24,000 nucleotides of DNA from assembly GCF_000012285.1 (NCBI RefSeq), contig NC_007181.1, positions 1,162,823 to 1,186,822 on the forward strand, read 5' to 3'. Both the position numbers and the translations under genes were made by a program. Numbering within the stretch: position 1 is the first letter of the stretch; each line of letters begins with the position of its first letter. The DNA comes from Sulfolobus acidocaldarius DSM 639. Its GTDB lineage: Archaea; Thermoproteota; Thermoprotei_A; Sulfolobales; Sulfolobaceae. Under the pieces are notes generated by a model. The model was not told the DNA's origin and did not search any database. It worked only from the letters and a program-made list of their open reading frames with translations. Of the stretch, positions 1 through 2,899 are shown piece after piece.

Positions 1-210
1 TTCAAATCCGTCTCTTGGTTGATATAATATAGTGTAATCAACTAAGGAACCAGTACCTTTGCTAAATATTTTTTCTACATCCAAGGAACCGCAAACTTCA
101 CATATCTTCTGGTAAGGGAATTTTATATTCCCACATTTTTTACATTTACCTAATGCTAATCTATATAAAGTATCTTTTAGTCTCCAGCTTGTTGAAGGAC
201 TAATTTTCAT
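1..210 (-). CDS. DUF35-family Zn-ribbon/OB-fold protein, N-terminal 70 aa only (gene continues past the left edge)
   Basis: Absent from the ORF track because it is open at the edge. My translation of the reverse strand from ATG 210..208 gives MKISPSTSWRLKDTLYRLALGKCKKCGNIKFPYQKICEVCGSLDVEKIFSKGTGSLVDYTILYQPRDGFE. It has a CxxC-x11-CxxC ribbon. It starts 5 nt after the thiolase-fold gene stop, the position DUF35 takes in archaeal thiolase/HMGS clusters. Confidence 0.6.
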   Translation of the reverse strand, partial: MKISPSTSWRLKDTLYRLALGKCKKCGNIKFPYQKICEVCGSLDVEKIFSKGTGSLVDYTILYQPRDGFE

Positions 211-215
211 CCAAC

Positions 216-1310
216 TCACCTACTGAGAACAGCTAAATAAGAAGTATTTCCCAGATCATCATTTGAAAGAATTATTCCTTTTTCAGCGTTTGCACTCTTA
301 CCCTTAAACTGATTTGTCAAATGAAGGAATACCTCCCCTAACTGATATATTGCAGTTCCACCACCGATATAGCCACGTGCCTTTAATCCACCACTAAGGT
401 TAATGTCAAGAGAATCAACAACATCTAAACCTTTTCCTCTCTCTGCTAGCTTGAGCTCTTCAATTTCTAATGCAGCCATAATACTATAAGAATCGTGTAT
501 TTCGTATACAACATCTCTCTTTGGCAAATCCCCTAACTCGTTTCTAGCTTTAGCTACTGATGGTAATGAAGGATCAGATAGATTCATAGCTCCTATATTT
601 CCTACTATTCCATCAATCTTTACGGGAGAATCAAAATATCTCTTTGCTACTTCATCTGCAGTTACTAGGACTACTGAGGCACCGTCAGCTCTGGCACCTA
701 CATCAAATATTCTTAATGGATCTGAAACTATTTGAGAATTAACCACTGTGTTTTTGTCTACTTTAAATTTCAAATATGCTAAAGGATTTTCTGATGCGTT
801 TTGATGCATCTTTATAGGCCATTTAGTAAAATACTCATAATCTACGTTATATTTCTTCATATATCTCTTCATTAATAATGCACTATATGCATGAGGGGTT
901 ATTCCAACGTGGTATGTATAATCGTTATCTAGATTATATGAAAGATATTCATTTACATATTTGGACGGATAATCAGAGAACTTGTCTATTCCAATAAGTA
1001 ACACTTTTTTTGCAACTCCTGATTTAATGAACGAGTAAGCGGTTAATATCGATGCACCGCCATTATCTCCGTTCTCAATTCTCATAACTTTTGTGTTTTG
1101 AAGACCTAAACCAGATGATATCTTGTAAGATGAAAGAATATTTTTCCCTAATACGTCTATATATCCACTAGATACTATTACAATATCTGGCTGGTCATAC
1201 TCCTTAATCTTTGTAATTAGTTGTTTATAAGCCTCAGAAACGAGATCCTTTTCAGAAAGCTCATAATATCTATCTAGCTTAGTTAGTCCACAACCAACTA
1301 TTGATACCAC
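216..1310 (-). CDS. Thiolase-fold (SCP2-thiolase-like) protein; canonical catalytic Cys/His residues apparently missing
   Basis: 364-aa ORF with a GTG start overlapping the HMGS stop by 1 nt (TAGTG). Overall thiolase-like layout: SGGLKARG..GGGTAIYQLGE resembles the GGxxxxGHPxGATG loop, and EIHDSYS resembles HDCF. The only Cys is Cys7. Confidence 0.75.
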   Translation of the reverse strand: MVSIVGCGLTKLDRYYELSEKDLVSEAYKQLITKIKEYDQPDIVIVSSGYIDVLGKNILSSYKISSGLGLQNTKVMRIENGDNGGASILTAYSFIKSGVAKKVLLIGIDKFSDYPSKYVNEYLSYNLDNDYTYHVGITPHAYSALLMKRYMKKYNVDYEYFTKWPIKMHQNASENPLAYLKFKVDKNTVVNSQIVSDPLRIFDVGARADGASVVLVTADEVAKRYFDSPVKIDGIVGNIGAMNLSDPSLPSVAKARNELGDLPKRDVVYEIHDSYSIMAALEIEELKLAERGKGLDVVDSLDINLSGGLKARGYIGGGTAIYQLGEVFLHLTNQFKGKSANAEKGIILSNDDLGNTSYLAVLSR

Positions 1311-2356
1311 TATTCATACACCTTATATTTACCTGTCGTCTTTGCATATGTAGAATATGAAACAAGCACTTTTCTTTCAATATAATAATTAACCGTTGGT
1401 GCTAATTTTTGCTTTTCTAGAATCTTATCTGTAACTAATATGCTGAAAGCATCGCTGCCTGCACCACTACCGAAGGGTGCAACAAGAATCCTCTGACCTG
1501 GTTTGGCTATATCAAGAACCTTAGCCAAACCCAATAAAGCTGAGGCATTATAGGGATTTCCTATATAAGGAGAAACTAAACCATCTTTAACTTTATCCAT
1601 ACTAATTTCTAACTTTCTAGCTACTTGAAGAGGAAACTTGCCGTTAGGTTGATGGAAAACAAAGTAATCAAAATCAGATATCTTGTAGCCATTTTCCCTG
1701 AACAATAAGTTAACAGCTGACAATATATGATCGAAATATGCTGGTTCTCCAGTAAATCCCTCGCCATGCACTGGATAAGGCATGCCGTCTCTTCTCCAGA
1801 AGTCTGGTGTATCTGAGGTATATGAAACAGCTGCCTCTATAACTGCTCCAGCCTCATTCTCTGGACCGACGATATATGAGACAGATGCAGCAGCAGAACT
1901 TAACTCCAATACATCACCGGGATTAGACTGTGCTGTGTCACTCCCTATTACCAAGCCATATTTTATTTTAGAAGCTTCAACCATACCGCCAACCAGTCTC
2001 AACGCAGCCGATGCTCCCCTACAGGCAAATTCCATATCTGCACCTAAACTATCATTAGTTACTCCTAATGCGTCTATAAGAATTGTTGCAGTAGGCTTTA
2101 CCGCATATACTTTAGACTCAGATCCGAATAAAACAACGCCTATCTGAGAAGGATCGATATTTGCCCTTCTCAAAGCATTCTTTGATGACTCCCATGCCAT
2201 TGTTGTTGAATCTTCATCTACATCTGGGACTGCTTTTTCTGAGAGACCTAGGTTTTTAACAACCTGACTCTCTAATCCCCATAAATTAGCTATTTCGTTT
2301 ACATTTATTCTATATCTAGGAATATATGCACCCCATCCTACAATACCGCTTCGCAT
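1310..2356 (-). CDS. Hydroxymethylglutaryl-CoA synthase, archaeal type
   Basis: 348-aa ORF. Has the condensing-enzyme motifs GSESKVYA (Glu), [12 protein letters not shown] (nucleophilic Cys), [10 protein letters not shown] (His) and GNPYNAS. Clustered with thiolase-fold and DUF35 genes. Confidence 0.85.
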
Positions 2357-2467: not shown

Positions 2468-2515
2468 ATGATGAAATTAAAAAAAGAGATCGATGATCAA
2501 CTCAGCTCACTCTGA
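2468..2515 (+). ncRNA. Candidate C/D box sRNA (weak), antisense to the 3' end of the decarboxylase gene
   Basis: Layout: AUGAUGA (2468..2474), 12 nt, AGAU (poor D'), CG, AUGAUCA (2493..2499, C' with one mismatch), exactly 12 nt (ACUCAGCUCACU), CUGA (2512..2515). Spacings are canonical, but D' is poor, the first guide is A-rich and there is no clear terminal stem. Confidence 0.3.
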
Positions 2516-2899
2516 ACTTCTATCTGCGAAAAACATTTGATGACGTTTAGGTTTTAAATTAGATACAATAAACTCAAAGGCAGCTTGAGGATTACTGTCA
2601 ACTCCGCATGTATAGACGTCTAGTGTTGCATATTTATATTCGTTCCATGTATGTAGAGCGATATGACTCTCCTCTACTAGGGCTATTACAGATACCCCAC
2701 CCTTCTTGCCACCAAAACTCCATGACTTTATCTCTACTAGGTTCATTTTAGCTATTTTAACAGCTTCTAAAACTAATCCTTCTAGAAGATCCTTATCCAT
2801 AAGCAACTTATCATCGATATCATATAAGTTTCCGAAAACGTGCTTACCTACTATTCTATCCTGATTAGAGGGGGTTTGAGAAGAAAGTTGTTGTGACAT
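2507..2899 (-). CDS. Pyruvoyl-dependent decarboxylase proenzyme of the AdoMetDC (SpeH) fold; either S-adenosylmethionine decarboxylase or the crenarchaeal arginine decarboxylase paralogue
   Basis: 130-aa ORF with the self-processing motif [11 protein letters not shown] (predicted Glu77|Ser78 cleavage, codon 2666..2668), then [10 protein letters not shown]. Both are typical of small archaeal/bacterial SpeH proenzymes. Confidence 0.8.

Follow-up and report, generated by a model that had tools for sequence, protein, structure and literature searches.

A thiolase-like protein with altered catalytic loops in the HMG-CoA synthase operon of Sulfolobus acidocaldarius and its relatives

How does an archaeon start membrane-lipid synthesis when the thiolase-like subunit encoded beside its 3-hydroxy-3-methylglutaryl-coenzyme A (HMG-CoA) synthase has lost its catalytic residues? 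The complex of acetoacetyl-CoA thiolase with HMG-CoA synthase (HMGCS) and a DUF35 protein is the accepted account of how, in archaea, the first reaction of this pathway proceeds although condensing acetyl-CoA is unfavourable. We analyzed a 24,000-nucleotide stretch of the Sulfolobus acidocaldarius genome (the window; C1:1162823-1186822, from a single contig of 2,225,959 bp), in which the thiolase-like gene Saci_1361 lies between the genes for HMGCS (Saci_1362) and a DUF35 protein (Saci_1360); these locus tags come from the orthologue table of a study of essential genes in S. islandicus (PMC6249222). All four catalytic loops of Saci_1361 are altered. We consider it probable that the protein is a pseudoenzyme that serves as a scaffold and CoA-binding subunit, with acetoacetyl-CoA coming from the Cys-bearing thiolases of the genome.

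The thiolase half of the complex is catalytically gutted in S. acidocaldarius, S. islandicus, S. solfataricus and Metallosphaera, the crenarchaeal models that have been studied best, and in S. islandicus its gene is essential. The listing of Saci_1361, SSO0534, Msed_1647 and M164_1583 as acetoacetyl-CoA thiolases, in annotations as in tables of metabolism, is probably wrong. This raises the questions of where the acetoacetyl-CoA for lipid synthesis comes from and why HMGCS needs a dead partner. Both are directly testable, because genetic tools are available for these species and their proteins are thermostable.

The operon

Saci_1361 has HMGCS upstream and DUF35 downstream, and the three genes are translationally coupled, as their stop and start codons overlap. 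The relevant features are as follows.

1310..2356, minus strand: Saci_1362, archaeal HMGCS, catalytically intact, the only one in the genome (NF003274, TIGR00748, residue check)
1308..1312, minus strand: TAGTG, in which the HMGCS stop codon and the GTG start codon of Saci_1361 have one base in common
216..1310, minus strand: Saci_1361, thiolase-fold gene ("acaB-1") for a product of 364 amino acids without the catalytic Cys (open reading frame (ORF), Pfam, NCBIfam, AlphaFold2, Foldseek)
1065..1067, minus strand: codon of Asp82, which occupies the place of the nucleophilic Cys, G-D-N-G-G versus A-C-A-S-G-G (alignments, codon check)
489..497, minus strand: His272-Asp273-Ser274, the HDC(F) motif with Cys replaced by Ser (alignments, codon check)
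369..371, minus strand: Tyr314 instead of the His of the G-H-P loop (alignments, codon check)
255..266, minus strand: Ser349-Asn-Asp-Asp352 instead of the canonical C-terminal N-x-G-G active-site loop (column comparison, codon check)
216..219, minus strand: GTGA, in which the Saci_1361 stop codon overlaps the GTG start codon of Saci_1360, with an ATG 9 nt further on
1..219, minus strand: first 73 codons of Saci_1360, DUF35 zinc-ribbon/OB protein, which continues past the window edge
88-150, minus strand: CxxC...CxxC ribbon of Saci_1360

At its full length in the genome, Saci_1360 is a free-standing DUF35 protein of 140 amino acids. Saci_1362 scores 542 bits against NF003274 and 447 bits against TIGR00748, contains E80, C112, H235 and N267, and retains 68 of the 70 columns that are at least 98% conserved among 68 archaeal HMGCS. 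A search of the genome for a decayed second HMGCS, paired with a live thiolase elsewhere, found none, as one HMGCS-like gene only is present.

Catalytic loops of Saci_1361

The motifs were registered by phmmer alignments to the top matches among PDB sequences (the Pyrococcus furiosus thiolase 7YVY, S. tokodaii ST0096 4YZO, and the Methanothermococcus thermolithotrophicus complex thiolase 6ESQ/6ET9), and by a MAFFT alignment of 72 thiolase ORFs from HMGCS loci. In the nucleophile region, ENGD-NGG of Saci_1361 stands opposite EAAC-ASGG, with Asp82 (or a one-residue gap) in the column that holds Cys in every Cys-bearing HMGCS-adjacent thiolase sampled. EIHDSYS stands opposite EVHDCF[TS], so that His272-Asp273 is retained and Ser stands in for the Cys; HDAF occurs in some Cys-bearing HMGCS-linked members, and the Cys of HDC is hence not universal. 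Opposite GGLKA.GHPVGATG, Saci_1361 reads GGLKARGYIGGGTA, with Tyr314 where every canonical sequence sampled has His. A column-by-column comparison with Cys-bearing sequences adds a fourth altered loop to the three of the initial annotation, as the C-terminal N-x-G-G-x-G is S-N-D-D-L-G in Saci_1361.

The sole Cys of the protein is Cys7, where orthologues have Ser, Ala or Val. Over 20 of these, among them the S. islandicus and S. solfataricus proteins, are entirely free of Cys. A catalytic Cys hidden by mis-registration of the motifs is ruled out both by these wholly Cys-free orthologues and by the agreement of the fold match with three independent pairwise and two multiple alignments. The initial annotation had described a single Cys, the loss of the CxSG Cys, the changes of HDCF to HDSY and of His to Tyr, and intact HMGCS and DUF35 neighbours; the ORF translation, the alignments to solved SCP2-type thiolases and the residue checks on both neighbours agree with it on each of these points.

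Fold and orthology

Saci_1361 matches thiolase profiles weakly. Pfam detects Thiolase_C_1 (37 bits) and Thiolase_N, the best NCBIfam subfamily model, PRK06064, gives 215.7 bits versus a cut-off of 420, and the equivalog model for the M. thermolithotrophicus thiolase (AcCoTHIOL_METTL, NF053570) gives 140.6 bits versus a cut-off of 600. The AlphaFold2 model (54-sequence alignment; pLDDT 94.2, pTM 0.93) nevertheless has the complete five-layer thiolase topology, and a complete SCP2-type thiolase fold is thus predicted with confidence. Foldseek matched this model to the following structures.

6ESQ/6ET9 (M. thermolithotrophicus complex thiolase): TMq 0.90-0.91, identity 26%
4YZO (ST0096): TMq 0.85, identity 27-28%
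7YVY (P. furiosus thiolase): TMq 0.85, identity 26-27%
6OK1 (Ltp2): TMq 0.78, identity 17%

Saci_1361 is an orthologue of the complex thiolase and not a stray paralogue, because of its position between HMGCS and DUF35, its placement in the tree (see below) and its structural match to 6ESQ/6ET9.

ST0096 of Sulfurisphaera (Sulfolobus) tokodaii, although among the top PDB matches in both sequence and structure and likewise without the nucleophilic Cys (S-G-S-G-G, and HDM for HDC), is a different paralogue. It keeps the GHP His, and its S. acidocaldarius counterpart, at 1487012-1488148(+) of the genome, is not beside HMGCS. The only mention of ST0096 that we found in the literature is as a structural neighbour of PhlC.

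Distribution of the Cys loss

The substitutions are not specific to S. acidocaldarius. Orthologues with 45-59% identity are present in Stygiolobus, Sulfurisphaera, Saccharolobus, Acidianus, Metallosphaera and other Sulfolobaceae. They have Asp at the nucleophile position (Glu in one) and the HDS motif, with Ser instead of His at position 272 in some Metallosphaera; the loop reads GY in most and GH in S. solfataricus and S. islandicus. The substitutions are not due to chance, because they recur in about 40 orthologues covering all Sulfolobaceae genera.

We surveyed 80 HMGCS loci across Archaea, among which the HMGCS/thiolase/DUF35 arrangement recurs, and found 72 thiolase ORFs, most of them directly downstream of HMGCS. 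The thiolases sampled were adjacent to HMGCS, except in Desulfurococcaceae sensu stricto and the Ignisphaera-type genomes.

Methanogens, Hadarchaeota, Hydrothermarchaeota, Micrarchaeota, Woesearchaeota and one Thermoplasmatales metagenome-assembled genome (MAG): canonical AAC-ASGG, HDCF or HDAF, GHP
Acidilobaceae and several Desulfurococcales MAGs: Glu at the Cys position, HDS, GHP
Family coded f6: Asp at the Cys position
Family coded f5: Gln at the Cys position
One Nitrososphaerota MAG: Asn at the Cys position
Pyrodictiaceae: Cys retained
Ignisphaera-type: Cys retained, thiolase 12-15 kb from HMGCS
Desulfurococcaceae sensu stricto (putatively Staphylothermus, Desulfurococcus, Thermogladius): Cys retained, thiolase elsewhere in the genome

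Among the sequences sampled, the Cys is thus retained in the aligned thiolases of Euryarchaeota, DPANN, Pyrodictiaceae and Desulfurococcaceae. More distant Cys-less homologues have Ser, Gly or Pro at the nucleophile position.

In quick maximum-likelihood trees (LG+G4, SH-aLRT support), the Cys-less proteins of Sulfolobaceae, Acidilobaceae, the Zestosphaera-type, f5 and f6 form one group (SH-aLRT 97-100). It sits inside the HMGCS-linked thiolases, beside the Cys-bearing crenarchaeal ones and apart from the other paralogues of the S. acidocaldarius genome. The Nitrososphaerota loss is separate. The exact position of the main group is uncertain because its branches are long and long-branch attraction is possible; the tree fits one or a few ancient losses of the Cys. 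What the initial annotation saw as the trait of one protein is therefore the trait of a clade, according to the orthologue survey and the trees. The motif losses themselves stand, the Cys loss and HDS being shared by all Sulfolobaceae genera, but the His-to-Tyr change is not conserved.

An explanation of the loss by acetoacetyl-CoA from the 4-hydroxybutyrate cycle is not supported by the distribution. Acidilobaceae, which are organotrophs, share the loss, and Pyrodictiaceae, which include autotrophs running this cycle, keep the Cys.

At L081-L085 (from the Desulfurococcaceae-type genomes G045, G124, G138, G117 and G003) and at L004, no thiolase gene adjoins HMGCS. Their genomes have a single canonical Cys-bearing thiolase hundreds of kb from HMGCS, with no DUF35 ORF seen in the ~700 nt downstream of it. 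The HMGCS open frame of G003 is 508 amino acids long and may be a fusion.

Constraint and integrity

The thiolase-like subunit evolves clearly faster after the loss of the Cys, to judge from sequence identities, yet far from neutrally. As a measure of constraint, we divided thiolase identity by HMGCS identity for pairs of organisms. The ratio is 0.94-1.0 for Cys-bearing lineage pairs versus 0.59-0.82 for Cys-less pairs, and it is lower for the Cys-less thiolases in every bin of HMGCS identity. At 55-65% HMGCS identity, for example, mean thiolase identity is 57.7% for Cys-bearing (ratio 0.94) and 35.3% for Cys-less proteins (ratio 0.59).

The remaining constraint lies largely outside the former active site. 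Of 35 positions that are invariant in 39 Sulfolobaceae orthologues, most fall in residues 160-210 (W164, M168, H169, E174, N175, R200, D203, D209 and G210) and 304-326 (N304, GGLK, R312, G313, Q323 and E326). Former catalytic positions vary in the same family (82 D/E, 272 H/S, 314 Y/H). Saci_1361 keeps the whole thiolase fold and the residues of the loop domain and the GGLK loop.

The exact 364-residue protein is recorded on 277 contigs. Near-identical S. acidocaldarius database entries (P0002-P0006) include shortened forms, several of which are chimeras broken by peptides such as LLYTSPSPRYRRQRQMCIRD and LSLIHISEPTRP, which Illumina Nextera / Tn5 mosaic-end sequence yields when translated in frame. 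These chimeras suggest contaminating adapters, or reads from transposon insertions, in public assemblies and not natural variation. A 345-residue form ending in ...AEKE has lost one A from an A5 run in GCTGAAAAAGGA (window 276-290, minus strand). It is confined to one other S. acidocaldarius assembly (a contig of 2,225,130 bp) and probably reflects an error in sequencing or a mutation of that strain. We therefore rejected the shortened variants as signs of pseudogenization.

Essentiality and expression

The orthologue of Saci_1361 is essential in S. islandicus. In transposon-insertion sequencing of strain M.16.4, M164_1583 (annotated as AcaB-1; listed orthologues Saci_1361, SSO0534 and ST1350) was essential, as were M164_1582, the DUF35 orthologue of Saci_1360, and the adjoining HMG-CoA reductase gene; HMGCS was scored "u" (PMC6249222). 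The proteins of this group are also expressed. SSO0534 is abundant, with 63 peptides in a control pull-down (PMC6105217), and Saci_1360 and Saci_1361 both appear in a list of genes whose transcripts oscillate in level (PMC6335949).

Msed_1647 has been tabulated as an untested candidate acetoacetyl-CoA ketothiolase (PMC7078158). A preprint that counts seven ketothiolase/DUF35 pairs in S. acidocaldarius does not comment on catalytic residues (bioRxiv 10.1101/2024.07.05.601840); its count agrees with the seven DUF35 genes that we find in the genome. We found no paper noting the Cys loss in HMGCS-linked proteins of Sulfolobales, within an incomplete coverage of the literature.

Other thiolases of the genome

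S. acidocaldarius has other candidates for the synthesis of acetoacetyl-CoA. Its genome encodes two classical thiolases and nine SCP2-type thiolase-fold proteins, three of which retain the nucleophilic Cys. One Cys-bearing gene, at 924092-925288, has a DUF35 gene downstream, and the two are probably the Saci_1121/1120 pair, as judged from matching coordinates to tags. The Saci_1121/1120 complex condenses acetyl-CoA in vitro (bioRxiv 10.1101/2024.07.05.601840). Another of the three Cys-bearing SCP2-type enzymes is a near-twin of Saci_1121.

The other six SCP2-type genes lack the nucleophilic Cys. Besides Saci_1361, they are at 1487012-1488148(+), 1516737-1517885(-), 1777879-1779048(+), 2074080-2075258(-) and 2075255-2076403(-) of the genome. 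Two Cys-less paralogues with YDSF and G-Q-P motifs, each with a downstream DUF35 gene, resemble the pattern of the Sal/Ltp2 aldolases. Two are adjacent and overlapping, which suggests a heterodimer.

Two related genomes of 1.3 Mb from the f5 family (G053 and G159) encode only two kinds of thiolase-fold protein besides HMGCS, both Cys-free: the HMGCS-adjacent form with Gln, and an ST0096-type with Ser at the Cys position (ORFs L091 334-1494(+), L092 697-1866(-) and L094 1179-2348(+)). Searches of the f5 genomes with PF00108 or PF02803 found no Cys-bearing thiolase.

Function of Saci_1361

The initial annotation had left two options for an inactive thiolase subunit, a pure scaffold or a repurposed active site. 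This pair of options still frames the question, and the evidence favours the former, extended to CoA binding. Saci_1361 would descend vertically from the subunit that serves as acetoacetyl-CoA thiolase in the archaeal thiolase/HMGCS/DUF35 complex, its thiolase chemistry having been lost in an ancestor of Sulfolobaceae and some Desulfurococcales. Translated from one coupled operon, it would be produced at a fixed ratio with HMGCS and DUF35, would still assemble with both, and would hold HMGCS active. It would have been retained because HMGCS needs it and DUF35 for folding, assembly and the shared CoA site. Saci_1361 would supply the thiolase side of that site, where free acetoacetyl-CoA, made by stand-alone thiolases encoded elsewhere in the genome, could be bound and passed to the active site of HMGCS. 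Of this scheme, we infer complex formation in Sulfolobus, the CoA-binding role and the source of acetoacetyl-CoA.

A structural need for Saci_1361 is plausible because the methanogen HMGS is inactive alone and the thiolase insoluble alone, as the 2018 study of M. thermolithotrophicus is cited in PMC12960953. The same paper describes a fused CoA site at the HMGS-thiolase interface. S. acidocaldarius shares with M. thermolithotrophicus the three-gene module and its order, the SCP2-type fold within the same HMGCS-linked clade, and intact HMGCS and DUF35. Saci_1361 differs from the methanogen thiolase in that the nucleophilic Cys, the HDC Cys, the GHP His and the NxGG loop are all replaced, in falling below the equivalog cut-off, and in evolving faster than its HMGCS. 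Channelling of the intermediate in the methanogen style cannot operate here, because Saci_1361 cannot make acetoacetyl-CoA by the known mechanism.

There is a precedent for a non-catalytic subunit in such an assembly. The Friedel-Crafts acyltransferases PhlACB and MucABC (5M3K, 9VBO) also consist of HMGS-like, thiolase-like and DUF35 subunits with one of them non-catalytic, but the pattern is reversed, as their HMGS-like subunit has lost E-C-H-N and the thiolase-like one keeps Cys and His and does the chemistry (PMC12960953). In S. acidocaldarius, HMGCS is intact whereas the thiolase-like subunit is degenerate. The operon would thus be a natural case, mirroring PhlACB/MucABC, of an enzyme subunit becoming a pseudoenzyme inside a channelling complex. 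New here are the quantified shift in rate and the phylogenetic extent in Sulfolobales and Desulfurococcales, in genetically tractable models with essentiality data.

Several observations weigh against a pseudoenzyme. Assembly of the complex and CoA binding in Sulfolobales are themselves inferential. Throughout the clade, the Cys position holds a polar residue, which is acidic in most members (Asp in Sulfolobaceae, Glu in Acidilobaceae and their relatives), and His272-Asp273 and the GGLKARG loop are highly conserved; these features could reflect a new catalytic use and not decay. A gene with a new enzymatic role could just as well be essential. A dead thiolase also forfeits the benefit of the complex, in which channelling pulls the unfavourable condensation, and the supply of acetoacetyl-CoA then becomes a puzzle. 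Finally, either thiolase is dispensable for the f5 organisms, or there are Cys-free superfamily members that are catalytic after all, and a protein of this branch that lacks Cys may in some cases still be a catalyst. The conserved acid carries less weight as evidence of new catalysis in view of Gln in f5, Asn in the Nitrososphaerota MAG, and Ser, Gly or Pro in more distant Cys-less homologues at this position.

Alternative functions

A repurposed enzyme is unlikely, although it accounts for some of these observations. Asp82, His272 and Tyr314 would carry out non-covalent acid/base chemistry on a CoA thioester, such as an Ltp2/Sal-type (retro)aldol reaction, a hydration or an isomerization, which would feed or edit the HMGCS reaction. 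The acidic position 82 throughout Sulfolobaceae and Acidilobaceae, the conserved HD and GGLK.RG loop, and the essential S. islandicus gene would all fit. Cys-less thiolase-fold aldolases with DUF35 partners are known as well, namely Ltp2-ChsH2(DUF35) and Sal-Shy(DUF35) (PMC12329534), and the fold of Saci_1361 matches their structures (6OK1, 9MYR).

The resemblance to these aldolases is limited, however. The catalytic base of Ltp2 is the Tyr of its YDHF motif, and the corresponding YD(H/C)(F/Y) of Ltp2 and Sal is HDSY in Saci_1361, with His in the place of that Tyr (PMC12329534). Tyr314 may be positionally equivalent to the general acid Tyr344 of Ltp2; it is His in S. solfataricus and in S. islandicus, where the gene is essential. 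The DUF35 of the aldolases belongs, as a domain, to a MaoC-type hydratase, and their context is steroid degradation; Saci_1360 is free-standing, and the neighbours of Saci_1361 are HMGCS and a gene of the S-adenosylmethionine decarboxylase (AdoMetDC) fold, not steroid catabolic genes. The structural match is also poorer (TMq 0.78-0.80, 17-18% identity) than to the methanogen thiolase. The Ltp2 parallel drawn in the initial annotation from the His-to-Tyr change is accordingly not borne out.

Other observations also speak against a repurposed active site. Some Metallosphaera have Ser for His272, related lineages have Gln or Asn at position 82, the subunit outpaces HMGCS in evolution, and the invariant positions are not pocket residues. 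HMGCS is intact, and the pathway therefore needs no extra reaction.

A broader proposal, which we regard as quite unlikely, is that the complexes of Sulfolobaceae and their Cys-less relatives, while devoid of thiolase chemistry, obtain acetoacetyl-CoA by another reaction (for example, a decarboxylative one from malonyl-CoA), or by a new kind of Cys-independent Claisen catalysis with the carboxylate at the former nucleophile position. Either of the two, if true, would be an entry into the archaeal mevalonate pathway not described before.

In its malonyl-CoA form, this proposal is very unlikely. The thiolase step would be bypassed by an irreversible synthesis of acetoacetyl-CoA, either in a KS-Q/CLF-type pocket with Asp, Glu or Gln or by NphT7-like condensation at the KAS III-like site of HMGCS. 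The replacement of the Cys by Gln, Asn, Asp or Glu is reminiscent of KS-Q domains, one related lineage (f5) has Gln there, and Sulfolobales make malonyl-CoA for their 3-hydroxypropionate/4-hydroxybutyrate cycle. On the other hand, the Acidilobaceae, which share the Cys loss, are fermentative organotrophs for which we know of no need for acetyl-CoA carboxylase. Saci_1361 itself does not show the KS-Q/CLF pattern of Gln with an intact His/His or His/Asn oxyanion pair, as it has Asp at the Cys position and Tyr in place of the oxyanion-hole His of the loop. A Cys-less trypanosomal SCP2-thiolase-like protein does decarboxylate malonyl-CoA, albeit very slowly (PMC12329534), but this activity is negligible. 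The proposal is speculative.

A thiolase with a non-Cys nucleophile is more improbable still. Asp82 would form an acyl-aspartyl mixed anhydride, as in CoA-transferases. This would explain why Sulfolobaceae and Acidilobaceae have an acidic residue precisely where the nucleophile belongs, and why some related genomes are without any Cys-bearing thiolase (PF00108/PF02803). However, three more catalytic loops are altered, Gln or Asn replaces the acid in related lineages, the acceleration in rate argues for lost constraint, and, to our knowledge, no thiolase with an aspartyl nucleophile exists.

Decay of a functionless gene, a pseudogene in the making, might be read from the scores far below the family cut-offs and from the shortened database entries, but it is refuted by the artefactual or single-assembly nature of these entries, the open frame and intact protein on 277 contigs, the confidently predicted fold, the conservation in every Sulfolobaceae genus and the essentiality in S. 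islandicus.

Neighbouring gene

The AdoMetDC-fold gene encodes a pyruvoyl enzyme (2507-2899, minus strand; PF02675, E 3e-34). It shares the strand of the HMGCS operon and lies directly upstream of it. In S. islandicus, the AdoMetDC-fold neighbour (M164_1585) comes after HMGCS.

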